Source of the DNA: Isurus oxyrinchus
Taxonomy: Eukaryota
Assembly: GCA_026770705.1 (NCBI GenBank)
Contig: JANJGN010000071.1
Span: 2,418,001 to 2,482,000, forward strand
Direction: 5' to 3'
DNA length: 64,000 bases
A program made the position numbers and the translations under genes. Under the pieces are notes generated by a model. It did not search any database and was not told the DNA's origin. It worked only from the letters and a program-made list of their open reading frames with translations. Shown here piece by piece: positions 29,760 to 58,605 of the stretch. How positions within the stretch are numbered: the stretch's first letter is position 1; each line of letters opens with the position of its first letter.

Positions 29760-29875
29760 TCACTGTTTGTCTCTCCCAGACACAGACTCCAGTGATAGTG
29801 ATACCACAGCCACAAGGAATATCATAGCTCGTATTCCCAGGATCAGGATCACGTGCAGAATCTCTCCTCCACTGT
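29760..29875 (-). CDS. Siglec-like gene A TM/terminal exon (Y)SGGEILHVILILGIRAMIFLVAVVSLSLESVSGRDKQ*
   Basis: tctAG acceptor; phase 1 matches the preceding C2 exon; hydrophobic stretch with Arg; 1-nt deletion relative to the gene B copy. Confidence 0.8.
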
Positions 29876-31575: not shown

Positions 31576-31857
31576 ATTCCACAGTAATGGTTAGGAACCC
31601 CTCCATTGCTCCATGTTCATTCTCTGCCACACACTGATATTCTCCAGTGTCCCTGGATGTAACGTGAGGAATCACCAACCACAGCTCATTGTTGGAACTT
31701 GTTCTGTTCATTGGGACATTAAGATGTCGCCACGTCAGGTTAGAAGCTGGGGAGCTCTCGACAGAGCAGATTATCACTGCAGAATTCCCCTCAATTATAT
31801 TGATCGATGAAGCGTTAATCATATCTGGAGAAGTAATTGAGAGATTCCGTGGTGCGT
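31576..31857 (-). CDS. Siglec-like gene A second C2/I-set Ig exon (DAPRNLSI...CSVESSPASNLTW...DTGEYQCVAENEHG...TVE)
   Basis: 282 nt, phase 1-1, AG/GTGAGT; canonical C-W-YxC. Confidence 0.92.
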
Positions 31858-31989
31858 CTAAAAACAAATACAGATCAGTTAACTTACACTGACTGTGAAG
31901 CACTTTGAAAGACACTGAGAATGTGAAAGGTGTGATGTCAATGTAGGTTCTTTCACCACATAGCCCGTAATCCAGGCAGACACTTCAGT

Positions 31990-32390
31990 TCAGTATTGAG
32001 GGCGTGCTGCACTGTCAGAGGGTCAGTACTGAGGGAGTGCTGCACTGTCAGAGAGTCAGTACTGAGGGAGTGCTGCACTGTCGGAGGGTCAGTAGTGAGG
32101 GAGATCTGCACTGTTGGAAGGTCATTACTGAAGGAGTGCTGCACTGTCAAATGTTCGCTTCTGAGGGAGTGCTGCACTGTAGTAGGGACAGGGAGTGCTG
32201 CACTGTAGGAGGGACAGTACTGTGGGAGCGCTGCACTGTTGGAGGTTTACTGCTGAGGTAAAACTGCACAGTCAGAGCGTCAGTTTTGATTGACCAGTGC
32301 AATGTTGGAGGAGCACTACTGAGGGATCATTACACTATTAGAGAGTCAGTAATGAGGGAGTGCTGCACTGTAGAAGGGTCAGTGCTGAGG
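31990..32390 (-). repeat. 33-bp SINE-derived minisatellite
   Basis: Paralogous position to 60390-60880. Confidence 0.85.
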
Positions 32391-32402
32391 AGGCAAACAT
32401 GC

Positions 32403-32650
32403 TGTTATGTGTGTACTATAGGCCTCATGTGATAATGTGGAGTGCCAGGTACCTTTAAGAGAATACAAGTGGATAAACCATGTGACAGTACTGACCAATC
32501 ACTGGACAGTGTGGGCCACTGGTTAACTGTAAGTCTAGAGCTGGAGGTGGCTGTGGGAGCAGGCAAGGATTTAGTGCTCTGCCCTCTGTTACAATAAATA
32601 ATCAGCTTGTTCTAATGTCGGTCTCTCTTGGTTATTGATAGCGAGCATCA
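32403..32650 (+). mobile_element. Short solo-LTR-like element
   Basis: TGTT...ATCA termini and internal AATAAA; no clear TSD. Confidence 0.4.
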
Positions 32651-32659
32651 ACTAAGAAT

Positions 32660-32860
32660 AACTCAACAGGTCTGGCAGCTTCGGGGGAGAAGAAAAGAGT
32701 TGATGTTTCGAGTCCTCATGACCCTTCGACAGAACTGAGGTCATGAGGACTCGAAACGTCAACACTTTTCTCCTCCGCCGATGCTGCCAGACCTGCTGAG
32801 TTTTTCCAGGTAATTCTGTTTTTGTTTTGGATTTCCAGCATCCGCAGTTTTTTTGTTTTT
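32660..32860. mobile_element. Penelope-like short element with about 60-bp inverted repeat and degenerate hammerhead-like core
   Basis: actcaacaggtctggcagc...tttcgagtcctcatgacc / ggtcatgaggactcgaaa...gctgccagacctgctgagt; related pieces at about 12640-12730, 50160-50295 and 53905-54115. Confidence 0.55.
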
Positions 32861-32979
32861 ATCAACTAACAAGTGTATATGAAGGAGTGCAATTCGAGTT
32901 TACTCAACCAGTGAACTCATAGACTCAAGATATAAAACCAACAAACAGTCAGGGAGAGATGGACAATCCAACATGTGAT

Positions 32980-34200
32980 CACATTTCAGAGATGTGTAAG
33001 AATAATAAAGCAGTAATACTCAGGGATTTTAACTACCTAAATATTAATTGGGACAGCTTTAGTGAGCAAGGTAGGGAGGGAGAAAAATTCTGAAGTTGCA
33101 TCCAGGAGAAGATTTTTAGCCTGTGCATAGAAAGCTCAACAAGGGAGGGGACAGTTCTGGACCTAATATATGAAAAAGCGCCGGGGAAGTTGGAAAGCGT
33201 ATCAGTAGGGGAGATAGTGACTGTAACTCAACTGGATTTAGGACAGTTATGGAGAAGGATAAGTTTGTGCTGGGAATAAAAATTCTAAACTGGGGAAAGG
33301 CTAATTTTACTAAGATGAGATATGATTTGGCCCAAGTGGACTGGGAGAAGCTCTTTGCAGATAAAACTGTGTCAGAGCAGTGGGAGGCATTCAAGGAGGG
33401 AAGAGCGAGAGTACAGAGCAGATATCTTCCTGTAAAGACAAAGAGGGAGACCAAGTCTGGAGAACCCTGGAAGACAAGGAACATAAAGGTTAGGACTGAG
33501 AAAAAAGAGAAGCTTATGGCAGATACTGAGGGCTCAATACAGCAGAGTCCCTAGAGGAGTATAAATAGTGCAGAGGGGAACTGAAAAAGGACATGAGGAA
33601 AGATAAGAGAGTGCATGAGAAAGCACTGGTGGGTAGAATAAAGCAAAACCCAGAGGGATTTTTTAAATATGTAAAGAGCAGCAGAATAACTTGGGAAAGA
33701 GTGGGGCCGATTAGGGGCCATCGGGGTAATGTGTGTGTGGACCTGGAAGACGTGGGTACAGTCCTCAATGAATACTTTGCATCAGTCTTCACAATGGAAA
33801 AGGATGATGCAGGTATAACATCAGGGTGGAGGACAGTGAAATATGAGAGGAAATTAACATAGAGAGAGGAGGTACTAGTGGGTTTAGTGGCCTGAAAAGT
33901 GGATAAATCCACAAGCCCAGATGAGATGAATCCAAAGCTGTTGAGGGAGGAAAGGGAAGAGATATCAGGGGCCCTGGCAGTAATTTTCAAAACCTCTCTG
34001 GCCACAGGTGAGGTGCCAGAGAACTGGAGGATGGCTGATGTTGTCCCATTATTAAAAAAAGGAGGAAGGGATAGATCAGGAAATTACAGGCCAGTCAGTC
34101 TAACCTCGGTGGTGGGGAAGTTACTAGTAAGAATTCTGAAGGACAGAATGAACCAGCATGGACATGATGGACTAAATGGCCTCCTTCTGTCTAGGAGTCT
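32980..34200 (+). mobile_element. CR1 LINE ORF2 fragment (endonuclease end to RT start)
   Basis: GDFNY motif, LNEYFASVFT and NWRMADVVPLLKKG...NYRPVSLTSVVGKLL. Confidence 0.88.
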
Positions 34201-34378
34201 ATGAGTCCATGATGCACTGTCGGAGAGTCAGTAGTAAGGATGTACTGCCTGTCAGGGGTCACTTTTTACCAGTTAAAGACCAATGGTCTGTTGGTAAACA
34301 AAGTGCAGTGTGTGGGAGCTTGCTGTGCACATTTTATACTATTCCAGCGAATGTAGAATGAAGGATGTCGGTACTTAC

Positions 34379-34675
34379 CCTGCACAGTTAGTACGAGGGT
34401 CCGCTCCGATGAAACAGATGGATGTCTCACTCTGCAGCTGAGAGTGTGTCCGTGGTGTTTGAGTGATGGGATCAGGGTCAGAACAGAAGTATAGGTCAGA
34501 GTGACACCATGCTGAGTTACAGTGTTTGAGACTGATCCAGGTACGTCAGTGGGAATGTCCCAGGTTAAGACAGGTGCTGCTGTTCCATTGCACGTTGTGT
34601 TGAAGGTGCAGCTTACATCCACACGCTTTCCTGCAATAATTTCCGCAGGGAATATCGTGGGTTTATCTGTGAAAT
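34379..34675 (-). CDS. Siglec-like gene A first C2-set exon (DFTDKPTIFPAEIIAGKRVDVSCTFNTTCNG...LSCRVRHP...LTVQ)
   Basis: 297 nt, phase 1-1; extra Cys (TTC) typical of the Siglec domain-2 interdomain disulfide. Confidence 0.92.
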
Positions 34676-35403
34676 CTAACAGACAGAGAATGGATCCTTT
34701 TAGAGAAATATAACGTGAAGCATCAGTTCAAATAGAAACCACAGTCCCACAGGAGAAAGTACTTTTACAAGGATGATATCAGAACTGAGAGGTTACAACG
34801 ATCAGGAGAGAATTTCCTGCTTTCAGACTTTGGTGTTTCTGTCTCTCAGCTTAATACACATTCACTCCGAGACACTTGAACTGATAATAGTGGGTGAGGG
34901 TGAAGGAGCAGACCAGAGTTTGGAGTGCACTACCCCATCAGTCACTCAGCGATCTGGGCCATTTAGTACTTTGCAATTTGTGGGAGCTTGCTGTGCGCAA
35001 ATTGGCTGCTGTGTTTCTCACATTACAACAGTAACTACAATTCAGGAATCAGCTCATTGGCTTTGAAGTGATTTGGTCCATGCTGAGGTGGTGAAAGGAT
35101 CTACAGAAATGTGAATCTTTCTTCTGTCGATATGTCAGACTTCGAGACAGGATTAGAGAGATCGATGGGAGTGGATAACCTGAAAACATTGATGGACACA
35201 GTCAATATATTTAATCATTGATATTAAAGTGAGTATTAGATGTTGCTTTAGGACTGAACTGGAAGCTATCACCATGTTATTGAGAATCAGACAGTGTGTT
35301 ATAATAAGCTGTGTTTTGTGTTAATATGTAAACGTCACAGTTTGTGTTATTTCCCTTTGAGTGTTGAATGTGAATTGTTGAGTAATTATAACACAGCACT
35401 TAC

Positions 35404-35440
35404 CAGAAACGTGAAGCTGGGTTACAGCATAGCAGCTGTA
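35404..35440 (-). pseudogene. Remnant 3' end of a second V exon (YSCYAVTQLHVS) inside the gene A intron
   Basis: Retains the GTAAGT donor and downstream intron colinear with gene B 50520-50800; upstream part replaced. Confidence 0.8.
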
Positions 35441-35479
35441 ACAGGGCGTTCGTGAGATTGTAACAGGATCATTGTGTAC

Positions 35480-35960
35480 AGGCAGTTCAGAGAAGCTTCA
35501 CCGGGCTGATTCCTGGGATTAAAGGGCTTGTCCTGTGAGGAAATGTTGAGCAGGTTGGGCCTGTATCCATTGGAGTTTAGAAGAATGAGGGGTGACCTTA
35601 TTGAAACATATCCGATTCCGAGGGGGCTTGACAGGGTGGATGCTGGGAGGATGTTTCCCCCTCGTGGGGGAATCTAGAACCAGGGAGCACAGTTTCGGAA
35701 TGAGGCCTCTCCCATTTAAGACTGAGATGAGGAGGAATTTCCTCTCTCAGAGGGGTGCTAGCCTGTGGAATTCTCTTCCCCAGAAAGCATTGGAGGCTGG
35801 GCCATTGAATAGACTCAAGGCTGAGTGAGGCAGGTTTTTGATCGACAAGGGAGTCAAGGGTTTGGGGGACAGGCAGGAAAATGGAGTTAAGGCCACAACC
35901 AGATCAGTGAGAGCAGGCTCGAGGGGACGAATGGCCTGCTCCTGTTCCTATTTCTTATGT
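35480..35960 (+). mobile_element. CR1 LINE 3' fragment
   Basis: FKTEMRRNFLSQRGASLWNSLPQ and CR1 tail. Confidence 0.8.
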
Positions 35961-36479
35961 TCCTACATTCTTACCATCTTAAAATATTAAAGCTGCAGAA
36001 TAAACATGCAAGTGACTGACCCGCTCGACCCACCTTCCATCTGGGGGTCCCATGGGGAGGACCCTTCCTGAGCCAGGTCCACCAGCCAACATGGTCTGGA
36101 TCCGAGCACAGGAGACACGGGGGGGAGTGACTAACAGGCTCCTTGTGACAGGCCCCATCTGTCCAATGGCTGGCTTTCAGCTGCCAAGGCCAGAGTGGTC
36201 CTTGCTAAAACCAGCTCAGGACAGGCCAGGACCCCTGTGCAGACCCCCTCCAGCGCTGCAGCCTCTGTACAAACCCCTCATGCGCTTGTGGAGAGACACA
36301 AACAAGGCTGCACATTACCGAGGAGAATCCCCTCTACGGACTAAGGGGCTGACTCATCACCTCAAACTCAGCAAATGAGGAGGCTCTCACTCGGTATCGG
36401 GGCTTGGCATTGGCTCAATAAAAATAATCAAATTACATTTTGGTCAGAAATCTAAGGATGTTGTACATTCCCTCAAAAA

Positions 36480-38140
36480 TAAGACTCAAGGCTGAAGGCA
36501 CAGCTGCTGATGTTGGAGTGATGGGATCGGGGGATGGTCAAGAGGCTGGAATTGGAGGAGCGCAGAGACCTCAGAGGGTTGGAGTGACTGGAGGAGGTTA
36601 CAGAGATAGGGAGGGTTGTAGGGGCTGAAAAAGTTAAGAGAGATTGGGAGAGTGTAGGGTCTGGAGGAGATTACAGAGATAGTGAGGGTTGTAGTGATTG
36701 GAGGAGTTACAGAGATAGGGAGGGTTGTAGGGGCTGGAGGAGGTTACAGAGATAGCGAGGTTTGTAGTGATTGGATGAGTTATAGCGATAGGGAGGTTTT
36801 TAGGGGCTGGAAAAGTTAAGAGAGATTGGGAGAGTGTAGGGTCTGGAGGAGTTTGCAGAGGTAGGGAGGGTTGTAGTGACTGGGGCAGGTTACAGGGGCA
36901 GGGAAAGTTGTCGGGACTGGAGCAGGCTACAGAGATACGGAAGCTTTTAGGGGCAGGAGGAAGTTACAGAAATAGGGAGGTTTGTAGTGGCTGGAGGAGG
37001 TTGCAGAGATTGGTAGGTTTGTTGGGCAGGATGAATTTACAGATATAGTGAAGTGGTAAAGGCTTGAAGAGGTTACAGAGAATGAGATGGTTGTAGGTCC
37101 TGGAGGAGGACGAGGAGATTACAGAGATAGTGAGGAATCAAAGATGAAAATTGTGACATTGAGACTTTGCTTGACCAGGAGCCAGTCTCGGTCATCGAGC
37201 AGAGCGGGTGATAAGGGAACGGGACTTGGTGTGAGTAAGGACGTGGTCAGCATTTTTGGATGGCCTCAAGTTTATGGAGTGTAGACCGTGTGTTGGAACA
37301 GTCGAGTCTGGAGGTAATGAAGGCGTGGATGAGGGTTTCAGCAGCAAATGAGCTGAGACAGGGTGAAGTCGTGCGATGTTACGGAGGTGGAAATAGACGG
37401 TGTTAGTGAGGGCGCAGATATGAGGCCGGAAGCTCATCCCAGGATCAAATGGGACAACAAAGCTGTGAACAGATTGGCTTCAATCTCAGAGAGCTGCCAG
37501 GGAGAGGAATGGAGTTGGTAGCGAGGGAACAGAGTTTGGAGCGGGGAATGAAGACAATGGCTTCAGTCTTTCCAATATTTAATTGGAGGGAATTTCTGCC
37601 CATCCAGTACTGCATGTTGGATAAGCAGCCTGATAATTTAGCAGCTGTGGAGGAGTCGAGAGAGGTGGTGGTGAGGTAGAGCTGGGGATCCTCAGTGGAC
37701 AGGTGAAAACTAACACTGTTCAGATGATGCTGCAAAGCCATTGCAAGTGATTCTCTGGCTACGATGAGATGGATAAGAATGGAGCCAGGGGAGAGCAGTC
37801 CCACCCAGCTGGACGACAGTGGAGAGGTGTTGGAGGAGGATGGTGTGGTCGAGCGTGTCAAAGGCTGCAGACAGATCGAGAAGGACGAGGAGGGAAAGTT
37901 GACCTTTGTCACAGTCACACAGGATGCCATTTGTGACCTTGATAAGAGCTGTTTCAGCACAGTGGCTGGGGTGGGAACCTGATTGGAGGGATTCAAACAT
38001 GGAGTTCCGGGAAAGATGGGAACGGATTCGGGAGATGGAAACACGTTCAAGGACTTTGGAGGGGAAAGAGAGGCTGGAGATGGGACGGGGGTTTACACGG
38101 ACGGTGTGAGGGGTGGAAGGTGTAGTGGGGAGGAGATACT
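36480..38140 (-). mobile_element. L2 LINE fragment with embedded 37-bp minisatellite (36585-37130)
   Basis: RPISSLSFPSKVLER, HCAETALIKVTN, LVLLDLSAAFDTLDH and LQLNIGKTEAI; 37275-38140 duplicated at 61875-62745. Confidence 0.88.
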
Positions 38141-38364
38141 TCACTCAGGGGGGAGGTGTCATCACCCCTCAGCTCGGTTTACGTTACAGCTATGATGTGG
38201 ATTCAATCACACACAATAAGCTCATGGATCTGGGAGCAGAAATAGACAAATCATTAAAAATAGTGACGCTGGTTAACACGGCCAAAAAACAAGCAAATCA
38301 AACACTATTATTTCCCATTGAGTGTTGGATGTGAATTGGTGAGTAATTATAACACAGCACTTAC

Positions 38365-38742
38365 CAGAAACATGAAGCTGGGTTTCAGGGTAATAGTTAT
38401 GGCTCGGACCATTGTCAAATTTTATTGTGAACAAATAACGTCCGGCATCTTCCCATCTGATGTTGTTAATAATCAGGGAACAGTCGCCATCTTTCAGGTC
38501 TCCAGACAGTCGGCTCCGATGGTGGAACTGTGGTAACTCGTGACTGTGATCCTTGGAGTGAAAGGCTACAGACCATTTAGAATATTTGTTCCGTATGTAC
38601 CTTCTCATATACCAGATTCCAACATGTCGTTTCTTTACCAAATCTGATGGATAACTGTAATGACATGGAATCTGTACACACGAAACTTCCTGTGCTGTCA
38701 ACGCTCGTGGAGTGTCACCTTTCCACTCTTGTGACAGTCCAA
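38365..38742 (-). CDS. Siglec-like gene A V-set exon
   Basis: 378 nt, phase 1-1; Siglec cysteine pattern CVQIPC...W...GDLKDGDCSL; F strand reads YLFTIK (essential Arg absent). Confidence 0.92.
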
Positions 38743-38984
38743 CTGGGGAGAGAAATATCAATATTTAACTCTGGATGGTTTGTAGATCCACTAGACTCGA
38801 TATCCACCCTCTCCATCACTGGGGCACAGTGGCTGCAGTGTGGACCATCTACAGGACACACAAGGAACTCCCCAATGTTTCACAATGGATGGAAGAGAAT
38901 CCTGGAAACAGGAGTGGACTAGTTCATTCTACATTGGCTCATGTCCTCAGGACCCTGTTTGTGCACAAGCCCGCTATCCAACAG

Positions 38985-40667
38985 AACTGAAGTTGGGGAA
39001 AATCCATTTGGAATTCCACTGTCCAGGGCATTGGGTTAACTTGCTGAGTTTGTTTTAAATCTAACATCTATCTTTGGTCTGTTGCCTTAAAGGGAGTGTA
39101 ACTGGGAGTCAGGTTAATTAGGAATTTTAGGAGTTATTATAGCAGTCATTGTAGTTTTATGTATGTGCTTGAAATCTTTTATTTTGATGACAAATATTTT
39201 ACTTTATTGTTTTAAATCTGTAAAGGTCTTGGTGTAATTATTGCTTCTGAATTCAGTGCACATATCTCATAATAAATACAAATTGCAAAATCATTATGAT
39301 CATGTGACCAGGTTTCTCTCATGGACTTGGTCTGCCTGGCACACATCACCTGCCAAGTGATAACACTGTTGTAATATGCCTTTCAGGGACAGCAGCATGA
39401 CATCACTCGAGGGGAAGTGTGTCATGTGATTTTTAGGAACTGGAGTTGGCTTAAGTAAGTTCGATGTGTATTTGTGTGCGTTAGGCATAAGGTCTATCTT
39501 TAAGTTCAAGTTTAGTTTGTATTTCTGTATTTGGGTGTTTAGAAAAGGGGGAACTTGACTTAAAAAGAAGCCAGCATTCCATTGAGGTTTTATGTCTCTT
39601 GAAGGGAAGTCAAAACAAATACAAGGTGTAAGAAACTGTGCTGTTGCCTAGTAACAGTGATCCAGAGGGAAGGACCCACAGAGACAGAGAAAAACAGAAA
39701 AGTACTTTCAGTTCTGTTGAAAGGAGTTGCCAGGAGAAGCAGCAAAGGATTGGGACAGATAGTCAGTCCCAAAGTAAAGAAGGAGCCAAAACCATCGAGT
39801 GGAACAGGAGAAAGGGCCCAAGAAAACCTTCTTGTCAAATCTGGAAAAGGCCCTGTTAAGTGAAGTTAAGAGTGAGGAGCAGAAGAAGGCTTCAAGCTTA
39901 AAGGAAGAAGCAGCAGGACACAGGCCTAAAGCAAAATAGGCTTGTGAGAAGCCAGAAGATCCTAGGAGACACCACAGGTTGGTGACTCATTACTACGGCC
40001 ATGTGAAGCCATGGTGTTCCATTGACACGGCTGAGCATTGGAGAGACAGGGCGTGGAAGGAAGGCTGAATGCACGTGGCGATCCAGGGAACAGGAACATG
40101 GGAAGGAGAGTTTGAAATAGTGAAAGTGGTCCCTTGTGGAAGGTGTCTGAGTGAAAGTGTCATGTTGGAGAAGATTCCAAAGCGTGTCCTTGAAGAGTGG
40201 ATACTGGAAACCCTCATATGGATATCTCAGTTCAGTGAGACTGGTTGGCTCACAGTGTAACAAGCGTCTGGGGTCAGATGAGGAGGGAGACATAGCATTT
40301 GTTTCAAGTGGGTTCTGGCAATTGCTTTAAGAGTGTGGTGTCCCTGACCCCAGGTCGTCTATTGGTTTACATCGACTGTGTACTTAGTGTGAACATGAGA
40401 GTATAAGATAGCTATTGTAACTTGTGTTCTACTTATGAATCTGTAAATGTATAGGTCTGGGTGAAGGAGTAATGTAATATAGTTTGTCTTTCCTAGTTTA
40501 ATAAATGTTTTATTCTTTTGTTAGACGTTCATCAGATGATTCCTGTGACTCTGTTCAGTAGCCGCACTCCACATTCCAAAATAAAAAATAAAAGTTAGGA
40601 CCTATCAAGCTGAGCTCCACCCTGGGATCTGACTTGCCCAGTAGTAACATCAGCTGGGATGATAACA
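38985..40667 (+). mobile_element. Two adjacent LTR-like elements (3' part ending TAACA at 39365; about 1.3-kb solo LTR 39367-40667)
   Basis: TGTT...AACA termini, AATAAA near the 3' ends, absent from the paralogous gene B intron. Confidence 0.6.
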
Positions 40668-40669
40668 CC

Positions 40670-42650
40670 ATCCAGTCCAAGTTTCACTTTGGCCTGTGAG
40701 CAGAACACAGCTCACACAGTTTGGCTGCAGGTGTCTCCCAGCTTTCTATCCTTGTTCTCATGTCCCTGTTCTTAATAAATGAACCCACAATGTATTTACC
40801 CAATTCCGTATCAGTTGTTGGTGCCTTTATATCATTATAAAAACACAACATGGTGATCAGCGGTGGCCAAACATTCTGGCAGCAAGATTCAGTACAGGTA
40901 TGACGTGGTGAACAGCCTTAGATCGAGCTACATGACATGAGACGACCCTCGACGCTTTGGTCAGACCACAACAGAGACACAGCATCAGAGAGGGTTGAAA
41001 TCGCAGTGTACTGACTGCTCAGGAAACCTTTGAAGACACAGTGACGGGAAAGAGCTCAAGTAAAGAGCTGGGGAGCAGACGGATCCCTCGTGGTGAGATT
41101 ACAGCACACGGCCTGTAGGTCAGTGAGTGGGACAGTGTGTATCGCCAGGACCAGCAGCGGGTTAGCTCAGTCAGGGAAGGCGAGTGACCAGGGTGTGGGC
41201 TGGATCGATAGTGAGCGAGGGAGAGTCAAACACACAAAAACCATTATAAAAATCAGCCCAGAGAAGTTAGTGATTTTAACGGGCGGCTTCGAGATTGCTG
41301 AACAGCAAATTGAATAAAAAACAAAGACTCCATTACTCCGTGGTGTGTTCCTGCCACAACCCGTCTTCGTGGGCGGAGCTTCGGAAAAGCACACAAAAGG
41401 GGCTAAAGCGACACTCATCCCAGGTCCTGTAGGAGAAGGAAGGTCAAAGGAATATTGTCAGAATGTCCACGAAATTCCCCAGTTTGAACTGGGATGTAGC
41501 TGACCGACAATCTGAATTCAGAATGTTTAAACAGCGTACAGAGCTCTGGTTTCCTGATTCAGCTGTGACTGAACCAGACGAGCCACCCATAAAAATTCAC
41601 CTCGCGATTGGGAATGAAGGTCTACACAGGCTGAACACGTCAGGATTAACAGCAGAAGAGCGAAAGGATCCCCAATAGATATGGACGACATTGGAAGACA
41701 GGTTCAGAATCAGGTGAAACTCCATATTCATCAACTAGAGTTTATGTCATTTCATCAGCCTACACAATCCATAGACCACTTCATCAGCCGATGTAGAGAA
41801 AAGGGTACGCACTGTGATTTCAAACACAGAGCCTGCAGACAGAGTTGTTGAGTTGGTGATCGCATCCACTCCCATGGAAGCCTTCCAGAAAGATCTGCTA
41901 GATAAGACCAAAACCTATAGCATTGAAGAGCTACTCAAGGATGGACATAAATACGAAGTGATCCTCGCAGGTCAACGAAGCTTACAGGTCCTCAGTACAA
42001 CATCAATTATTGACACACTCACTAGAACATCCAAACCTAGTGAGACGTGTGGAAGGTGTGGCCTTCTGCAGGCACCATGGAAATGCCCAGCTTTCCACCA
42101 ATCCTGCAAGGCTTGTGGCAGAAAGGGCCTTTGACAGCGGCAGGGCACTAGAGCAAAGGCTGATGCAGCTACAAAGAGCCGTGCGCTGATCCAAACAAAC
42201 CCTGCACAATGGGGAACCTTCAAGCAATAAGAATGACCATCCGCTATCCCATCAGGAACATATACATGTGGTGACTGACAAGCCAGGAAATGGCGATGAT
42301 GTACACGACGAGACTAGGAGCGGTGATCAATATTCCACCTCTCACACATATCCTGACGTGGCTTGCCAAATAATTGTGGATTGTGGTCCTTATTGATCTC
42401 TCTTGGCACATCAAATAAACTGAAAATGTCCCATAGGGGTGGGATTTTCTGGCCCCACCCACTTCCATGATTGTCCAGTCCGGCCAAAAGCCAATGGATT
42501 TATGTCTGTCCCAGTCTATCCCATCAGCTCAGTTCATGACATAACATTGAAATATGCAGAAAGATTCAACAATATTGGCAGTTTCAAAGGAGCTGCAACA
42601 TTACACCTGCAGGACAATGCAAGTCTGTCAGACTCCTTGCATTAAAATTA
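40670..42650 (+). mobile_element. Ty3/Gypsy 5' LTR end, PBS and degenerate gag
   Basis: LTR end ACAACA then TGG PBS-like at 40851; gag MSTKFPSLNWD...FRMFKQR; knuckle CGRCG...CPAFHQSCKACGRKG. Confidence 0.8.
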
Positions 42651-44017
42651 ATACAATCCAACTTTGCCACGCGATCTTGAGCCTGAAATGGCCAATAATT
42701 TCTATGCCTTCCAGTTTCATTTGCTCTCTCTTCTAATTTTGGCTGTGCATCTCTCTCTGTTGAACCTCCTCTCGGGATCCCATCCCCTGCCATATTAGTT
42801 TAAAGCCTCCTCAATTGCATCAAGGGTATAATGTCAATTGAAACCAGGGACAACATCGAAGAATGACAATCCCACAGATCAATGTGAGCAATTAAAGAAA
42901 CCTCCAGACAACTTTGCCACCACAAGATCTCGACATAACAGCAGATTACCTCTACGCTTTAGAGACTCAAATATTCAACAGATCTATACACTTATGTAAT
43001 TGTCAAGAAATATGAAAATGATACCAGGAACCTCTTGTTCCCTGTCCTTCTCAAAGATCCATCCCTGCAGCAGGAGCCTGAAGAGTTACTGATGTGGGGC
43101 TTAATTTATCAGATTGTAGAATGATCCGGAAATGAAGGATGCCATTTGGCCCATCGAGCCTGTGCTGGGCCTTTGAAAGATCTGTCCAATTAGTCCCACT
43201 CTAACCTCTGCTCTCTCCTCCACAGCCCTGCAAAATGTCCCCTTCAAGTATTTATCCAGTTCCCCTTCTGAAAGTTCCTGTTGAATCTGCTTCCACCGCC
43301 CTTTCAGGCAGTGAGTCAATGGTCTCTCTCTGAGCTGCAAAGTGCTAATGTTCTGAGAACTTTAAACTCTGCAGCAGATCAGAGACAATCATGATAACTC
43401 AGAATATTTGACAGTTTTACACACGGACAGCTTTACCTTCCTTCTCTCTTTCAGTTATCTTGCTCCCTTATTGAAGTATCTAGCAAGGTGAGAATGGACA
43501 GGAAGTGTGACACTGAACAGCCTGTCTATTCTAGGAGCTGCTGTGTTGTCTTCATGGGAAATTCTGACAAAATCAGCAAAAGACACAAAATTTCAGGGCA
43601 TTGTTATCCGAGTCCCAGCATCAGGATAGACCTCATCCCCCAGTTGGTATTCCTGATTCTCTATGCAGCCGATCGCTCCCCTGTCACTGGCTGAACTACA
43701 CTGACTCCCAGTCCAGCAATGACTCAAATTTCAAATTCTCATCATCGATTTCTTACCCCACCATCCTCCCTCTACACTCCCGATCCCTGTAACCTGCTCC
43801 AACCCTAAAACCCTCTGAGATCTCTGCTCTCCTCCAATTCTGCTGTCAGACAGGGAGTCAGTGTATATCAGTGAGCACAGGGGTGATGGGTGAATGGGAC
43901 TTGGTGTGAGTTTGTACACTGGCTCACTGCTGAATCAGTTCCCAATCACACTCAATAAGAATGATCTTTTACAAAGACTATTAGCCATAAACCTGTCCGA
44001 GCTGACAACGTTATTAC

Positions 44018-44057
44018 CTTCGAGAAGTGACAGGAGGAAGTAGGATTTCCCGATCAT
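44018..44057 (-). CDS. Siglec-like gene A signal-peptide exon MIGKSYFLLSLLE
   Basis: Acceptor tttcacAG before 44097; ATG 44057; phase-1 donor GTAATA; in frame with the V exon; assembled protein 370 aa. Confidence 0.82.
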
Positions 44058-44507
44058 TGTCCACTCCCAGGTACTTCATAAGCTTCTGACTCTCAAACTG
44101 TGAAAGAGAAAGGAGTTAATGAGACCTCACCTCTTGTCCGACAGCTCTCAAGAGATCAGAACTGTTTTTGGACAATGTCTTTACAGACTAATTTGATTCT
44201 CTGTGGGATGATAGGTGCTCTGCAGAGAGTTACAAGGCTTTAAGAAAGAAAAACATTAAAGGATTTGCATTTCTATAGCACCTTTCACCACCTCAAGACG
44301 TCCCAAAGCTCATGTCTCTGCACTTCCCTCATCCCTTGAGCTAGAAAGATGTTCTGTACAACAGACTTGAGTCTCACACCCAGATCTCAATAATCAGTAG
44401 AAATCTTTCAAAGGCATCAATCATTGGAATCTGTCTTTATAAAGTCACAACATCAACAAAGGACGGTGTTGGTGGTGGAAGTGAATTCCAATCGTTCCGT
44501 TACTTAC

Positions 44508-44592
44508 CCAGGACCTGTCCGACTGCTCGCCTGGGGAGGAACTGCCCACACGCTCTGCTTGGGCTGAATGACCTCTTCCTGTGCTGCTCCCT
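44508..44592 (-). other. Putative 5' non-coding exon of gene A (copy of the gene C 85-nt cytoplasmic exon)
   Basis: GTAAGT donor; one visible difference from 56505-56589. Confidence 0.5.
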
Positions 44593-44628
44593 CTGTGTGT
44601 TTAATTAGAAAGGGTGGATGTGTCACTG

Positions 44629-44650
44629 TGAGACAAAATGAGGAAGTGGG
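44629..44650 (-). promoter_or_regulatory. PU.1/ETS site upstream of the gene A leader
   Basis: AAAATGAGGAAGTG (core 44640-44648); neighbouring AP-1 site degenerate (TGAGACA). Confidence 0.45.
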
Positions 44651-47325: not shown

Positions 47326-50300
47326 TCAAACAGTCTGTCGACTTCCTTTCACTGTTTGTCTCTCCCAGACACAGACTCCAGTGATAGTGATAACCACAGC
47401 CACAAGGAATATCACAGCTCGTATTCCCAGGATCAGGATCACATGCAGAATCTCTCCTCCACTGTCTAGAGAACACACAGAAAGAAATCATCACTGACTC
47501 TCCGCTTTCAATCTCTCACTCTGGCTGAACAATCAAGCTTCATATCACTGCAACATTTGCTGTAATATTGACCCATCCACTGGGATTCAATGTGGAATGA
47601 ATGTTTTCCTTGTAAACACTCTAAGAGTGGACAATCGGAACTTTCCCCTTAGCGTGGAACATTGGTGAGAATGGATCATTGTGCTGTTGGACTCCCTGTC
47701 CAATGTTACTCTCCATCGCTGTGTACAGGATTGTGCTGTAGAAAATTCTGGAAACGTTTAGTGCAGGGTGGAAATCCATCTCGGACGCGTGTGCGAATCG
47801 AGCAGAATCGAGATGGACTTCCCCACGGACTTACACCCCCCGCTTAATAAACAGTTCCAATCTTTACCCAGAGAGAGGGGAGAATGTGGAACTCACTCCC
47901 ACAGGGATTGGTTGAGGTGAACAGTATCGATGTATTTAAGGGGCAGGAGGGTCGGTAACCAGAGGGACACAGATTGACCAACTGGAGGGGGAGATGAGGA
48001 GAATTTGTTTTGACAGAGCGAGTTGTTGTGATCTGGAAGGTGCTGCCTGAAAGGGCGGTGGAAGCAGATTCAACAGGAACTTTCAAAAGGGAAATTGGAT
48101 AAACACTTGAAGGAGGAAGATGGGGTAAAGTGGAGTGGTGGTTAGTGGATCTGATTGGATAGAACATTGAAAGACCTGGCACAGGCACAGTGGGCTGAAT
48201 GGCCTCCTCCTGTGCTGTATCATTCTCCGCTTCCATGATCTCTCCCCCAGTCAGTAACCACTCCAGATCCCTCTTGAAGGCGACAGAGAAACAGGAACTA
48301 CCACACCCACTGACAGCACATTCTCAAGGATCCCTACTCTCTGGGAAAAGATGAACTCCCCAACATCCAGCCTATTCCTGCTTCCCAGAGAGTGTAAACC
48401 CTTCAGGGAGGCACTGAGGAAGTTTTCAATAAAATGAATTATCAAATCTATCATTTGAGAAATAATTTAATTCTGATGAACTCACAGCTTGTGTAGCAAA
48501 CTGGGAAGTGGAGTTGCTTGAAAAGCTGGGAAACACAAGGATTAAGTGCTACAATGCCACCACTGGTGGGAGACTGTAACTACAGCGTGACGTTTACATA
48601 GGCAGTCATCATTATAAACAGGGGCATTGGACATACTGGGAAATATGTGCACTGGAAAGGTGAGTAAATGATGTAAGATTTTCACCAGCAGGAATTCTCT
48701 AACTAAACCTCTCCACTTCTCTCTTACTCTCAGATACACAAACAAAATCACACAGAATCAGATAAGGAGGAGTTGGGGCCGGTGATTGTTCGAAGGGTTA
48801 GCTTTCAGGAAGCTTCTTAAAGGGAGAGAGAGAGTTGGAGAGGCAGAGAGTATCTGTGAGTGTCTCTATGCATCTGAGTGTCTGTAATAGACTTTGTAAT
48901 TTCCATTTCTTCCATAAACATGATTGGGAACACAAATCCCAGAATCCAGGCCAACTCTCCAGTGCAGTACTCAGGTAAGCCACAGGGCAGTGTGTGCTAG
49001 TGTGTTTGTTTGTGAGTGTGTCTTTGTAATTGCTCATACATGTGTGTCTGCATGTGTCTATTTAGTTCTGTATATTTGTGTGTGTTTGTGCAATGTTTGA
49101 ATCTGAGAGAGATGTTGATGTCTGTGTACACTCACGTTCCACAGTGATGGTTATGAACCCCTCCACTGCTCCATGTTCATTCTCTGCCACACACTGATAG
49201 TCTCCAGTGTCCCGATATGTAATGGGAGGAATCACCAACCACAGCTCATTGTTGGAACTTGTTCTGTTCATTTGGACATTAAGATATCAGGGCAGGAATC
49301 AAGAAGCCCGTTCGCAGGATTACCAACAGAAAGAGAACCACAATTTATACTTAATGGGAAGAGAGTGCTGATTGGTTGGCAAGTGGTCTCTGATAGGTGG
49401 AGGTGTTGCCATGGAGAATGGTGTGTGCGAGATGTAAACTTTAGACAGCTTGTCTCTTTATTCAGTAATAATCAAATAAAGATCAATTAACTTCAATCGA
49501 CTGTGAAGCACTTTGAGAGGTCTGAGAATGTGGACACTGAGAACGGGCTGCACTGTCAGAGGGTCAGCGCTGAGGGAGTGCTGATGTAGAATGAAAGGTG
49601 TATGTACTTACCTTGCACAGTTAGTACGAGGGTCCGCTCCGATGAAACAGATGGATATCTCACTCTGCAGCTGAGAGTGTGTCCGTGGTGTTTGAGTGAT
49701 GGGATCAGGGTCAGAACAGAAGTATAGGTCAGAGTGACACCATGCTGAGTTACAGTGTTTGAGACTGATCCAGGTACGTCAGTGGGAGTTTCCCAGGTTA
49801 AGACAGGCGCTGCTGTTCCATTGCACGTTGTGTTGAAGGTGCAGCTTACATCCACATGCTTTCCTGCAATAATTTCAGCAGGGAATATCGTGGGTTTATC
49901 TGTGAAATCTAACAGACAGAGAATGGATCCTTTTAGAGAAATATAATGTGAAGCATCAGTTCAAATAGAAACCACAGTCCCACAAGAAAAAGCACTTTTA
50001 CAAGGATGATATCAGAACTGAGAGGTTACAATGATCAGGAAAGATTTTCTTGCTCTTTGGCAGTAGTGTTTCTGTCTCTCAGCTTAATACACGTTCACTC
50101 CGAGACATGTGAATTGAGAACACTGGATGAGAGAAGAGGCTCAGACCAGAGATTGGAGTTAAAAGCAGAATACTGCGGATGCTGGAAATCTGAAACCAAA
50201 ACAAAAATTGCTGGAAAGACTCAGCAGGTCTGACAGTATCAGTGGAGAGGAAGACAGGGTTAACGTTTCGAGTCCGTATGACTCTTCATCAGACCAGAGG

Positions 50301-51884
50301 TTTGAGTTCACTGGCTTCTCATTTCCTCAGTGATCTGGGTGATTTATCACCTTGTGGTTTGTTGGATCTTGCTGTGCACAAACTGCCTGCTGTGTTTTAC
50401 ATCTGTGACTACAATTCAGGAATAATTTCATTGGCTGTGAAGGGATTTGGATCCTCCTGAGGTGGTAAATTGCGCTGCAGAAATGCACATCTTTCTTTTA
50501 TCGATACGTCAGACTTTTAAACAGAACAGGAGAGATTGATGGGAGTGGATAACCTGATAATACAGTTAATGCTTTTCATCATCGATAGTAAAGTGAGTAT
50601 TAGAGGTTGCTTTAGGACTCAACTGGAAGTTATCACCAGGTTATTGAGAATCAGACAGTGTGTTATAATAAGCTGCGTTTTGTGTTAATATGTAAATGTC
50701 ACAGTTTGTGTTATCTCCCATTGAGTGTTGAATGTGAATTGTTGAGTAATTATAACACAGCACTTACCAGAAACGTGAAGCTGGGTTACAGGATAGTAGC
50801 TGTATCTATTCCAGCTGTCAAATTCTATTCTGAAAAAATAAGGTCCTGCATCTTCCCGTCTGATGTTGTTTATAATCAGGGAACAGTCGCCATCTTTCAG
50901 GTCTCCAGACAGCCGGGTACGATGGCGGAATCTTTGATCCCTGTGACTGTGACCCTCGGAATGAAAGGCTATAGACCATTTCGGCTGTGGGTTCCCATCT
51001 ATTCCTTTCAAGCAGATTCCGACACGTGATCTCCCTACGAAATTTGATAAGTAACTGTAATGACATGGAATCTGTACACACAACCATCCTGCGCTGTCAC
51101 CTCTCGTGAAGTGTCGCCTTTTCAATCTTGTGACAGTCCAACTGGGGAGAGAAATCTCAATATTTGACTCTGGATAGTTTGTAGATCAACTAGACTCGAT
51201 ATCCACCCCCTCCATCACTGGGGCTCAGTGGCTGCAGTGTGGACCATCTACAGGACACACAAGGAATTCCCCAAGGTTTCACAACGGATGGAAGAGAATC
51301 CTGGACACAGGAGTGGACAAGTTCATTCTACATTGGCTCATGGTCCTCAGGACCCTGTTTAGTGAAGCCAGTCTTCCACCCAACACAGTGTCTACAAGAT
51401 ACACAGGGAAACTGTGTAAACATCTCATCTCTCTACACTGACTGGTTTGAGCTTCAGTTTAACTTTCAGTATTTTTAAATTTCCATATTGTGGTTGCTAT
51501 GGTGAAACTGTGCAGGAAGTGCGAGGGCTGGACTCTCTGTCTATTCTCACTGCAGCTGTGATGTGGTCGTGGTGATTCTCAGTAAAATGAAACCCTCTGA
51601 GCTCCTCCATCCCCGAGGTTTAGGGAGTGAATTCCAGAGCTCAGGCCCCAGGCAGCTGAAGGCCCGGCCGCCAGTATTGGAGTGATGGGAATCGGGGGAT
51701 GGTCAAGAGGCCGGAATTGGAGTAGCACAGAGATCTGGGAAGTTGTTTGGGTGAGTTGCAGGAGGTTACAGAGATAAAGAGATAAGAATGATCTTTTACA
51801 AAGACTGTTAAACATAAATCTGTCCAAGCTGACGATGATATTACCTTGGAGAAGTGACAGGAGGAAGTAAGATTTCCCGATCAT
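47326..51884 (-). pseudogene. Siglec-like gene B, activating-type pseudogene. Exons: signal 51884-51845, V 51141-50768, C2 49908-49612, partial C2 49285-49136, TM 47465-47326
   Basis: V exon has TGA at 51124-51122, a 1-nt deletion (374 nt) and Trp->Cys; second C2 exon lacks its 5' half and acceptor; TM exon intact: SGGEILHVILILGIRAVIFLVAVVITITGVCVWERQTVKGSRQTV*. Confidence 0.88.
50258..50295 (-). ncRNA. Minimal type-I hammerhead ribozyme-like core in a Penelope-like short element
   Basis: Minus strand ggt-CTGATGA-a-gagtc-atacg-gactc-GAAAcgtta-acc; stem I only about 3 bp. Confidence 0.4.
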
Positions 51885-52334
51885 TGTCCACTCCCGGATA
51901 TTCCATCCACTTCTCACTCTCAAGCTGTGAAAGAGAAAGGAGTTAATGAGACCTCACCTCTTGTCCGACAGCTCTCGAGAGATCAGAACTGCTTTTAGAC
52001 AATGTCTTCACAGACTAATTTGATTCTCTGTGGGATGATAGGTGCTCTGCAGAGAGTTACAAGGCTTTAAGTAAGACAAACAATGATTGATTTGCATTTC
52101 TATAGCACCTTTCACTATCTCAGGACATCCCAAAGCTCATGTCTCTGCACTTCCCTCATCCTTTGAGCTAGAAAGATGTTCTGTACAACAGACTTGAGTC
52201 TCACACCCAGAATTCAATAATCAGTAAAAATCTTTCAAAGGCATCAATCATTGGAATCTGTCTTTATAAAGTCACAACATCAACAAAGGACGGTGTTGGT
52301 GGTGGAAGTGAATTCCAATCGTTCCGTTACTTAC

Positions 52335-52475
52335 CCAGGACCTGTCCGACTGCTCGCCTGGGGAGGAACTGCCCACACGTTCTGCTTGGGCTGAATGACC
52401 TCTTCCTGTGCTGCTCCCTATTTGTGTTTAATTAAAAAGGGTGCATGTGTCACTGTGAGTCAAAATGAGGAAGTG
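52335..52475 (-). promoter_or_regulatory. Gene B leader-exon copy with adjacent AP-1 and PU.1/ETS sites
   Basis: TGAGTCA 52456-52462, GAGGAAGTG 52467-52475, GTAAGT donor at 52334. Confidence 0.45.
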
Positions 52476-54459: not shown

Positions 54460-55234
54460 GCAGCTATATCTCATTCTGTTGTCAAAGCTGTCTCATCCAT
54501 CCATGACATATTGAAGAAGGTAAACCTGCAACCAATTTTTCACATCATAATTTCCTATGTTCATTGGCAACATCAATGTAAACATGTCACGCTGAAATGA
54601 TGTCCTGCCACCAGTGGTGGCACTGTAGCACATCTGTTATCCTCTGAGCTGCAGAGAATTTCTCAAATCTCCAATCAAATTGTTTCCCTGTTTCCGGGAT
54701 TGCTGATGGTTTTGCTCTTTAACGATGAAGTGTAAAATCCAAATATATATCTGAAAATACATTTGACTACAAAATGGTGAGTAAATTTTACCAATCTCCT
54801 CTGCTCCAATTATCCACCGATCCTGCATTTCATGATGTCTACACTGGCTGATGAATATTCTGTGAACACTGACAGACAGGAAGGTGAATAACTGAATGAA
54901 AATTAACTCATAATCACGGACACGGGATTGAATTTGTCCGTTCTGGGTCCTGGTACATCATCGAACGATACCTAAAGACATTTACAATCAGAATGGAGAG
55001 AATGATGTTTCCAACAGTGAGGGACAATTCTGAAGGAGGATGTTCAAATTGAAACCCACAGACAACCATCCTGGATAGATTATTCCGAAGAAATTCCATC
55101 AGATTGTAACAAGAGGTTTAAATCTATTTCCTGGGAGTGAGTTCCTGTGGATATTAGGAAGGTAAATTGGAGTTTTGAATGATTCTCCCGTTCTGTATTC
55201 TCCCCACACTGTGTGTGTCTCATTCTTGCTCAGT

Positions 55235-55351
55235 TTATAAATTCCCATAAACAGAATCCTTGGCAAAATCACAGTTTGCGTAAAGATCATCATCTGCATC
55301 AGGATTGACTCCGCGGTGAGATTTCATTTCCAGATCCTTCTCATCTTTCTT
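55235..55351 (-). CDS. Siglec-like gene C terminal cytoplasmic exon KKDEKDLEMKSHRGVNPDADDDLYANCDFAKDSVYGNL*
   Basis: ctattacAG acceptor; phase 0; two tyrosine motifs; TAA 55237-55235. Confidence 0.85.
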   Translation of the reverse strand, partial: KKDEKDLEMKSHRGVNPDADDDLYANCDFAKDSVYGNL

Positions 55352-55449
55352 CTGTAATAGAAACAGAAATGATCAGAGTGACAATCAGAGTGATCAGTGT
55401 TTAGTATTATTGATCCAAATCAAAAATTGCACCCACAGTAGATACATTA

Positions 55450-55760
55450 ATTATTGATACTGAATGCGGTTTGATTATTGAAACTGAACGGGGTTTGATT
55501 ATTGAATCTGAACGGGGTTTGATTATTGATTCTGAACGCGGTTTGATGATTGATACTGAAAGGGGTTTGATTATTGATACTGAACCGGGTTTGATTATTG
55601 ATAATAATCGGAGTTTGATTATTGATATTAAATGGGGTTTGATTATTGATTCTGAACGGTGTTTGATTATTGATACTGAATGGGGTTTGATTATTGATAC
55701 TGAACGGGGTTTGATTATTGATTCTGAACGGGGTTTGATTATTGATTCTGAACGGTGTTG
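55450..55760. repeat. 24-bp minisatellite (ATTGATACTGAACGGGGTTTGATT)n in the last intron of gene C
   Basis: About 13 units, directly visible. Confidence 0.9.
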
Positions 55761-55888
55761 GGTGTGAGTTTGGTTGGGTTTGGGAGTGACTGTATAAAAC
55801 ATTGCAGATACAGGACTGGAGCAGCCATATCAATAACCAGGCTACTGGAGCAGCTGAGAGGCTGGGGATCCTGTGGTGTGTGACTCAC

Positions 55889-55993
55889 CTGATTCCTCAA
55901 AGCCCAACCACGCTCACAATTTTCATAAACAGGACCTCGATATTCATCAACACGATGGTTCGATTTGATTCCTGCTTTCCCCTCGCCTCTCTT
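55889..55993 (-). CDS. Siglec-like gene C cytoplasmic exon KRGEGKAGIKSNHRVDEYRGPVYENCERGWALRNQ
   Basis: 105 nt, phase 0-0, ctattacAG / CAG|GTGAGT. Confidence 0.85.
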
Positions 55994-56504
55994 CTGTAAT
56001 AGAGATGGAAATGGACAGAGTGACAATCAACATGATGTGTATTCGGTGTTGGGTTTGATTATTAGGGAGAGGGTTCCAGATTTCCACTCCCCTTTGTGTG
56101 AAGAAGTGCTTCCTGACATCACCCCTGAACGGCCTGGCTCCAATCTGAAGTTCCAGCCCCCTTGTTCTGGACTCCACCCGACCCCCACCACCCACCCCCA
56201 CCCGAGGGAATAGCTTCTCTCTATCGACCCTATCGAGTGTTTAATCAGTTTGAACCCCTCAGTTAGATCACTTCTTAATCTTCTAGACCCGAGGGAATAT
56301 AATCGTAGACTGTGTGTAACCTGTCTGCACAATTTACCCAGAAAGATGTTCTGTACAACAGACTTGAGCCTCACACCCAGATCTCAATAATCAGTGGAAA
56401 TCTTTCAAAGGCATCAATCATTGGAATCTGTCTTTATAAAGTCACAACATCAACAAAGGACGGTGTTGGTGGTGGAAGTGAATTCCAGTCGTTCCGTTAC
56501 TTAC

Positions 56505-56589
56505 CCAGGACCTGTCCGACTGCTCGCCTGGGGAGGAACTGCCCACACGCTCTGCTTGGGCTGAATGATCTCTTCCTGTGCTGCTCCCT
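56505..56589 (-). CDS. Siglec-like gene C first cytoplasmic exon (K)GSSTGRDHSAQAERVGSSSPGEQSDRSW
   Basis: 85 nt; the only candidate found that bridges phase 2 (TM exon) to phase 0 with an open frame; GTAAGT donor; weak acceptor. Confidence 0.6.
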
Positions 56590-57243
56590 CTGTGTGTTTA
56601 ATTAGAAAGGGTGAATGTGTCACTGTGAGTCAAATCAGGAATTGGGGAACAATTGTGAAAACCCTTTCACTGAAACGTAGGGCCTTAGTGTTGTGTTGTA
56701 AGCAAACTGTTAACCCTTTGTGTCCTGACTCTGTGACGTGATTCCTGTGTAAAGCTGAGCAGTCGTTGAGCGAGTTTCAATTCACTGCTCACTCCAGGTG
56801 TTGAGGTGGATCTTCTGAAGGAGCATATGTTGCTCAGCGCTCCTTAAAAATGTGAGAGACTGAACAACGTGTAAGAGGACGAGAGAGAGAATGAGAAGGA
56901 GAGCATTAGTGGAGATTGGAGAGAGAGTGAATGAAACATGGAAAATGGAAAGAGATTGCATTCACTAACAAAAGAAAGGTTTTTATTTGTATAGCAGCAT
57001 TCACAAACTCAGGAGGTCACAAGGTATTTTATGGTCCAGGTCAACACTGCCAGTTACAGGACTGAGTTGTGAAACAGTGAGTGTTGGATGAGATGTTAAA
57101 CAGTAGGTGAACATCAAAGCTCTTCAGGGGCTGTGGAGGGTTTTGGATTGTAAAAGGTGCTATAGAAATGCAAGTTCTTTCTATAAGGAGAGAAGTTTGA
57201 AGAAAACATGTTCAAAAACAACCAATTAATCCTTCACACTTAC

Positions 57244-57340
57244 TTTCTCACACACTTGAAGATGAAGAATCCACTCAGTCCAACACTCAAACAGATTCCA
57301 GCTCCAAGCAATCCTGCTTTCCATTCATTGGAATCTCGCC
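57244..57340 (-). CDS. Siglec-like gene C TM exon (R)RDSNEWKAGLLGAGICLSVGLSGFFIFKCVR(K)
   Basis: ttttacAG acceptor; 97 nt; phase 1-2; GTAAGT donor; uncharged TM followed by basic stop-transfer residues. Confidence 0.88.
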
Positions 57341-57579
57341 CTGTAAAATCAGCCAATGAATGACTCCGGTACAGTTTGAGAATGGTTCCCTATGTACATG
57401 TAGTAATTCTGAACTTGTGAAGTGATATTGTCTATGCATGAAAGGTCTATACAAATAACATTTATCTATGTAATATTTATTGATAATATCCATGTACATG
57501 CAGGTTTCTATAAGGAGGATTCACATATAACAGAGGTGCCAAGCTGCTGAGGTGACACACAGGACTACATACACACCAA

Positions 57580-58570: not shown

Positions 58571-58605
58571 AATAAAAACAGAATGTTCAATTCTGTGTAA
58601 CTCAC

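Follow-up and report, generated by a model that had tools for sequence, protein, structure and literature searches.

A Siglec-like gene of Isurus oxyrinchus with the likely remnant of an internal V exon, in a large cluster that exchanges segments between receptor classes

The KIR and LILR clusters vary in domain number and hold activating/inhibitory chimeras made by unequal crossing-over, and humans carry about 15 Siglec genes. In primates, according to the accessible parts of PMC4042635, PMC5701461 and PMC6288428, the pairs SIGLEC5/SIGLEC14 and SIGLEC11/SIGLEC16 present near-identical ligand-binding ends on either a tail with an ITIM (immunoreceptor tyrosine-based inhibitory motif) or a charged transmembrane (TM) segment, and there are head-to-tail fusions of the SIGLEC14/5 type and frequent broken activating copies. 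CD33-related Siglecs combine V-set with C2-set domains and the Siglec cysteines, have sometimes lost the essential arginine (Arg) and end in tails with an ITIM and an immunoreceptor tyrosine-based switch motif (ITSM); Siglec-12 has two V-set domains, and human Siglec-XII has lost the essential Arg (PMC6288428, accessible part). Xenopus CEACAM is an expanded non-mammalian immunoglobulin-superfamily group in which ITIM-bearing and activating members are adjusted by conversion (PMC5112662, accessible part). Other literature on Siglecs includes PMC13358205, likewise accessible in part, and PMC8455134, whose accessible text mentions them once. A literature search, with most subscription journals outside its reach, returned no paper on a Siglec expansion in sharks. 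Here we describe gene A, one of three Siglec-like genes (A, B and C, all on the minus strand) in a 64,000-nucleotide (nt) stretch of the genome of Isurus oxyrinchus (contig JANJGN010000071.1, positions 2,418,001 to 2,482,000; hereafter the window). A preliminary description had read A as a mosaic, with a C-like ectodomain between B-like ends and the stump of a displaced, B-type V exon. Our analysis supports, with a probability of roughly 0.8, a different reading, in which A is a predicted activating (Arg-TM) member of a cluster of an estimated 530-580 genes with one to six V exons and swapped segments, and in which the stump is the rest of an internal V exon (V2) left by a deletion of about 650 bp.

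The stump itself was correctly described as 37 nt with a donor (GTAAGT), and no acceptor-like site lies within 117 nt of it. Its attribution to a B-type V exon did not hold, as the intron type on its 3' side is the family default, found in 41 of 42 genes behind their last V exon. A near-twin of A on contig C189 (V1 99.2% identical, collinear from the promoter to far downstream at ~97-99%) has a full-length V2, which carries a frameshift, at the stump position. Genome-wide, the best non-self matches to the stump region contain a full V exon in all 29 cases, 25 of them with an extra cysteine (Cys) in the B-C loop, among them each of the 15 whose match begins at the first base of the stump. Since a full V exon occupies this position in the twin and in every one of the best matches, the likeliest origin of the stump is a deleted internal V2, and the proposed replacement of one V exon by another in A falls away. 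In intact genes the breakpoint position lies 690-692 nt before the V2 donor, so that about 650 bp are gone in A, and GT is common to both sides of the junction. No sequencing run contained half of the words sampled from 34300-38800, and none of the runs listed as sharing them is recorded as RNA. None of the contigs listed for four sequencing runs bridged this junction, which is no evidence either way. Gene C, as previously noted, lacks the 2 kb that contain A's stump, the equivalents of A 37275 and 35256 being joined at 61875/61876. Its closest V relative, on contig C323, retains V2, and its junction differs from that of A, indicating that the loss of V2 in C was a separate one or took a further deletion.

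A is not a B-C-B mosaic, and B and C are not its closest relatives. The pairwise likenesses behind that idea were real: A 37275-38960 matches C 61876-63547 (98.3% and 97.3% in the intron parts), A 31570-31989 matches C 59968-60387 at 92.6%, and A matches B at 93.1% at the leader end (43955-44663 against 51782-52493) and at 90.6% at the 3' end (28364-31728 against 45960-49288). The V1 intron that A was said to share with C is indeed shared, with a reverse-transcriptase fragment inside it (Pfam RVT_1, E 4e-9; presumably of L2/CR1 type), but it is a common family type, A and C being 98.1% identical against a family median of 98.0% among 21 genes; in its V-proximal part, the other matches listed (40 minus A itself) are 99% identical to A. 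Beside the second C2 exon the similarity to C stands, but 31730-31857 belongs to A's 282-nt C2-type exon, of which it forms the 5' half, lost by B, and is not intron. The 3' block shared with B is likewise a common family type. As for a B-like 5' end, C's leader, which lies outside the window (G000:C71:2489045-2489681), is about as close to A, and A has its 5-kb leader intron in common with C and not with B; informative sites in the leader (27 A=B, 20 A=C, 14 B=C) are interleaved without blocks.

In a sliding comparison of A against 42 genes (300-nt windows), B came first in none of the 54 windows and C in three, two of them ties, and the C189 twin led in 17. Segment by segment, approximately unbiased (AU) tests rejected A+B in the leader (p 3e-12), the V exon and the 3' untranslated region (UTR), and A+C in the leader, the V exon (p 2e-34; the V exons of A and C are only 82% identical) and, marginally, the C2 exon (p 0.037); trees of C1, the V1 intron and the middle of the leader intron carried too little signal to place A. 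As a match to A, C ranks mid-table in every shared segment (12th of 20 in the V1 intron, 8th of 18 in the intron before C1). The resemblance of A's middle part to C thus comes mainly from retention in both genes of common intron types and of a complete C2 exon, lost in B; that of its 3' end to B reflects shared membership of the Arg-TM class.

One part of A does appear to be foreign. The three genes that share A's 1.8-kb insert after C1 are 97-99% identical to each other just upstream of C1 and only 85% identical to A, which over the same stretch is 95-97% identical to another intron class. Since the flanks match the twin, A was likely the recipient of a 765-bp tract, comprising the V2 end and the V2-C1 intron, which it would have taken from an internal-V2 paralogue. 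The best matches to the tract, at 96.6-96.7%, do not single out a donor, 43 of about 550 genes having been sampled. Gain of the tract may have belonged to the same repair event as the V2 deletion, whose junction has 2 nt of microhomology.

The family around A is very large. Exact motif counts in the Isurus oxyrinchus assembly (G000) gave 452 C2-set (C1) exons, 223 Arg-bearing and 310 uncharged TM exons and 568 V donors, with reversed-motif controls giving 0. Calibration on 1,134 kb of fetched sequence, in which the motifs recovered 62 of 91 V donors, 40 of 47 C1, 19 of 22 Arg-TM and 21 of 22 uncharged-TM features found by BLAST, raises these to about 830 V exon ends and 530-580 Siglec-like genes, an estimate that haplotype duplication could halve. 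Searches against the species' own genome returned at least 40 matches at 92% identity or more each. The cluster is spread over at least 17 contigs, with 65 Arg-TM and 95 uncharged-TM motif matches (160 in all) on contig C52 alone; a few family motifs on a contig of >15 Mb (G000:C34:15134586-15186053) offer a possible synteny anchor. We built 43 gene models from four long contiguous blocks and five short blocks chosen for likeness to A or C. One V donor precedes C1 in 19 and two to six in 23 of the 42 models with a C1 exon, A's stump being counted. 'Inhibitory' here denotes the TM class, cytoplasmic exons having been read for two genes and for annotated homologues. Siglec-like homologues annotated by NCBI occur only in sharks and rays, and the Carcharodon ones differ very little in the C2-set and TM exons.

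At the level of this family, segments have been exchanged between the activating and inhibitory classes. Each of four markers was found in all four combinations with tail class among 37 genes (three models that merge two genes, left unlabelled in the tree tests, and one cut by a block edge were dropped), and every intron marker occurs with both tail classes. In a test of the pairwise homoplasy index (PHI) type on 73 V exons, none of 2000 permutations gave a value as low as the observed one. Individual genes show the switches directly. An uncharged-TM gene (G000:C52:2995001-3006805) and an Arg-TM gene (C52:1986957-1998760) are 99.5% identical over 11.8 kb and then diverge; an inhibitory-class gene on C52 is 99-100% identical to an Arg-TM gene for 9 kb before continuing as another inhibitory gene; and a C323 gene resembles A over 4 kb and C from there through V1, with the crossover within the leader intron. 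The exchange between activating and inhibitory genes suggested by analogy with SIGLEC5/14 therefore stands for the family, where near-identical ligand-binding regions sit on opposite tails, but not for A and its neighbour C. Tail changes on the V1 tree number at least 6 against a shuffled mean of 12.3, which indicates that exchange is frequent but not free. Near-invariant introns (~98%) around diverse V exons may serve as crossover platforms, on which unequal crossing-over and conversion would alter the number of V exons and move heads onto other tails.

Several further features of the cluster were seen alongside. The C52 pair, 99.5% identical over promoter, leader and V1, with V1 itself identical, before it switches, is a clean SIGLEC14/5-like pair, with a third copy at C71:2501015-2512817. 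The middle of the leader intron (window 39000-43950) is 96-99% alike among its carriers and retroelement-like by eye. Nearly all genes begin with an exon that is 93-97% identical to the cytoplasmic exon coming first in C-type inhibitory genes (GSSTGRGHSAQAERVGSSSPGEQSDRSW; window 56340-56660, 52170-52494 and 44343-44653), and the tail copies of this shared exon, which form one clade, lack the ETS-like site found in most head copies (Table 1). Homology of this kind between head and tail could favour the fusion of genes. Around G000:C52:763900-766000, a TM exon and a partial copy of the exon are followed by the head of the next gene, later cytoplasmic exons being absent. Long tandem arrays lie at window 1-2379, 52569-53896, 8305-8763, 31990-32239, 44874-45886 and 60388-60881, and a 33-bp minisatellite among them recurs within and between the genes.

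First and internal V exons form distinct classes. Of 40 V exons in each class (one unread per class), 37 internal ones and no first ones have the extra Cys, which in other sharks is present in 25 of 32 later V domains. In Siglecs a disulfide bond joins the V domain to the C2 domain, and on that model we predict that the extra Cys bonds V1 to V2. The essential Arg, on strand F, is retained by all 38 intact internal V exons and missing from 15 of 34 intact first V exons; 13 of the 21 first V exons in multi-V genes have lost it, as have 2 of 13 scored single-V genes (one cut by a block edge), counts that reflect few events because the genes are related. C has it (YYFRI, aligning with YFFRV of Siglec-5), as does the broken V of B. 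One gene carries six tandem V exons at ~2.3-kb spacing (G000:C52:3101856-3124900; L108-L110), and seven intact C2 exons were seen in other family genes. A signal of positive selection in the first-V variable loop (pN/pS, the ratio of nonsynonymous to synonymous change, of 1.1, with pN 0.32, against 0.51 elsewhere) is uncorrected and confounded by recombination, and we do not claim it.

Relationship to Siglecs is supported by C's V domain, whose best PDB matches are Siglec-5, sialoadhesin, Siglec-10 and CD33 (E 8e-14 to 5e-12), by Pfam V-set and Ig_CD22 matches in A and C, and by the layout of C2-set domains after V followed by a single TM. The motifs CVQIPC, DCSL and CTFNTTC align with cysteines of Siglec-5 and MAG (two near strand B, one on strand E and the domain 2 partner), the pattern that forms the Siglec disulfide bonds. 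A shark V-C2-C2 homologue scored 162/130 bits with MAG, 134 with Siglec-8, 89-97 with CD33 and 46-49 with CD22, the chains differing in length. The view of these genes as paired receptors was borne out, with Arg in the TM of A and B and an uncharged TM and tyrosine-motif tail in C. Of 20 TM exons read, 17 have Arg and 3 have Gln, and adaptor use through the Arg TM is predicted. C's tail has SVYGNL and two imperfect motifs, and a second inhibitory tail type ends LLYANP...TEYAQI, with an ITIM and a distal ITSM-like motif.

Some of our results weigh against the reading given here, and part of them favour the earlier one, in which A was a B-type activating gene whose ectodomain was converted by inhibitory C, a new V replacing the old and leaving the stump. 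Within the window, A does match C in the V intron, the pre-C1 intron and the C2 exon, and B at both ends; AU tests fail to reject A+C in the V1 and pre-C1 introns (p ~0.15), nor do they reject A+B over the 200 nt preceding V (p 0.19; 19 A=B against 5 A=C sites), where B ranks 20th of 41; and C belongs to the intron class of A's tract (95.2% over 230 nt). C is not the best match to that tract, however, and has no V2 end; it also has no stump, and so cannot be its source. Together with the divergent V exons, the rejection of A+B in the leader, C's middling ranks and the full V2 in relatives, this has already largely refuted conversion by C, which we regard as very unlikely. Other cautions concern the family: the models cover 43 of about 550 genes, with five blocks picked by A or C likeness; the V1 tree still shows clustering by tail class; some marker combinations could be products of repeated deletion and not of crossover; and the direction of exchange is not rooted. 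A history of shared ancestral introns and independent deletions in A, B and C, with no exchange at all, would explain most of the contrast among the three, B having lost the leader intron, the V1 intron and half of C2, and C and A having lost V2, but it leaves unexplained A's tract, which differs from three 3' relatives, the sharp switches in the C323 and C52 genes and the PHI result, and is hardly credible.

An assembly origin for the stump junction and foreign tract, or for much of the copy number, through collapse, chimeric reads or unpurged haplotypes, is unlikely rather than far-fetched. The assembly contains each deletion junction motif, that of A and that of C, a single time; for many sampled blocks there is a partner of 98.8-99.5% identity across 10-29 kb, as there would be for unpurged haplotypes; and the cluster is broken over many contigs. 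Against this, repeat collapse should leave a seamless hybrid, yet A's junction has only the 2-nt microhomology and C's none; the tract is 3-4% off every copy examined and is not a copy of one; and A's frame stays open. Several near-identical pairs lie on the single contig C52, with its many TM motifs of both classes, and the multi-V design and tail classes recur in annotated proteins of other sharks. Deletion of an internal V2 and gain of a tract within a recombining family remain our preferred account of A.

The layout of the three genes is given in Table 1. In A, the phases of the coding exons all fit and the frames are all open; its signal peptide recurs unchanged in annotated shark homologues. 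With the stump skipped, the product would be a signal peptide, V1 (with Thr), two C2 domains, a TM with Arg and a short tail, and would signal via an adaptor with an ITAM (immunoreceptor tyrosine-based activation motif), namely DAP12 or FcR-gamma. Lacking the essential Arg and V2, it is improbable as a canonical sialic-acid binder, and a basic, aromatic C-C' loop could still engage a ligand; we thus predict, from sequence, an activating receptor without a canonical sialic-acid site. In one contig of a presumed RNA run, a V exon passes straight into C1, but 43 V positions differ from A, so it shows splicing of a relative only.

Table 1. Features of genes A, B and C, by position in the window
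Feature	Position	Strand	Remarks
ETS-like site, which we take to be PU.1-like, GAGGAAGT, upstream of A's first exon	44640..44647	+	in 42 of 46 gene-head copies and 0 of 6 tail copies; putative function
A exon 1, predicted 5' UTR	44508..44592	-	95% identity to the initial cytoplasmic exon in C-type inhibitory genes
A exon 2, predicted non-coding	44131..44221	-	acceptor approximate
A exon 3	44018..44097	-	ATG at 44057, signal peptide MIGKSYFLLSLLE, phase 1
Leader intron, 5 kb	38743..44017	-	also in C and in roughly half of the genes sampled; B lacks it
A V1 exon	38365..38742	-	open, Siglec-type V-set; Thr at essential-Arg position (YLFTI)
A V1 intron with reverse-transcriptase fragment of a long interspersed nuclear element (LINE)	37275..38364	-	common family type
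Remainder of A's V1-V2 intron	35441..37274	-	lost in C
Stump, final 37 nt of putative internal V2 exon	35404..35440	-	upstream acceptor and most of exon probably deleted
A foreign tract, 765 bp	34676..35440	-	95-97% to other paralogues; ~85% (C1-proximal 230 nt) to three closest 3' relatives
A first C2-set exon (C1), 297 nt	34379..34675	-	open
Intron insert after C1, 1.8 kb	32400..34209	-	besides A, carried by only 3 of 42 sampled genes and by neither B nor C
A second C2/I-set exon, 282 nt	31576..31857	-	open; B retains 3' half only
A TM exon with Arg (ILHVILILGIRAMIFLVAVV)	29761..29875	-	1-nt deletion makes tail shorter than family form
Gene B, Arg-TM class pseudogene	47330..52475	-	stop and frameshift in V 50768-51141; half C2 exon 49137-49288
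Gene C	55217..63340	-	leader outside window; V with Arg, three C2-type exons, frames all open
C deletion junction	61875..61876	-	V2 and most of its upstream intron removed
C uncharged TM	57244-57340	-
C cytoplasmic exons	56505-56589, 55889-55993, 55217-55351	-	tyrosine motifs VYENC, LYANC, SVYGNL

The stop in B's V exon is present in B's twin on C323, and the frameshift is absent there. An intact second C2 exon is missing from 13 of 19 Arg-TM genes, and two annotated Carcharodon proteins join C1 directly to an Arg-type TM with no second C2. In C, the second C2-type exon is tandemly duplicated (58606-58887 and 59974-60255), both copies being open. In the C189 block, which is collinear with the window, gene B is missing and an Arg-TM 3' region is partly left between a C-like tail and the A twin (G000:C189:590707-591443).

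Set beside the described systems, the shark family resembles the primate pairs in its opposed tails, fusions and broken activating copies, as far as the parts of those papers go, but the primates have two fixed neighbouring pairs where the shark has hundreds of genes in a network and two inhibitory tail types. Its V and C2 numbers vary, its introns are more conserved than its V exons, and A, B and C are neither a pair nor a trio. It shares domain layout, Siglec cysteines, occasional Arg loss and an ITIM-plus-ITSM tail with the CD33-related cluster, but differs in its ~550 estimated genes, up to six V exons and an internal-V class with the extra Cys; a V-C2-C2 relative scores as well against MAG, and the likeness need not mean orthology. 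KIR and LILR belong to another Ig family with far fewer genes. Like Xenopus CEACAM, the family is a non-mammalian expansion with conversion between opposed classes, but in CEACAM conversion is confined to the N exon and introns diverge, whereas in the shark introns are homogenised and V exons diverge (PMC5112662, accessible part). Also comparable are the NCBI shark proteins named 'Siglec-10/12/13/CD33-like' (Carcharodon, Cetorhinus, Scyliorhinus, Mustelus and others), with the same signal peptide, a V-V-C2 layout and all three tail types, under automatic names that imply no tested orthology or function.

The true local history of A is modest, a single-gene mosaic being ordinary for a recombining immune cluster, and the interest lies in the unusual Siglec-like family that surrounds it. 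We put forward, tentatively and at somewhat less than even odds, that this is the largest Siglec repertoire known, comprising several hundred mostly intact, modular paired receptors with one to six V domains, variable C2 domains and three tail types, and that, where members have several V domains, the outer one, hypervariable and often without the Arg, probes non-sialic or pathogen ligands and a disulfide-locked inner V keeps the sialic-acid site. The family makes testable predictions in the V-V disulfide, the split of roles between outer and inner V domains and the use of adaptors by the Arg TM. In teleosts, according to the accessible part of a preprint (bioRxiv 10.64898/2026.08.25.746757), the Siglec set is smaller than that of mammals and limited to clear orthologues of conserved Siglecs. 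Hundreds of paired, multi-V Siglec-like genes, rapidly shuffled within a shark cluster, would alter the timing and frequency of evolution in the CD33-related style, and, if the proposal is true, paired activating and inhibitory Siglecs would be an old strategy of jawed vertebrates or an independent invention of sharks, and not a mammalian novelty.

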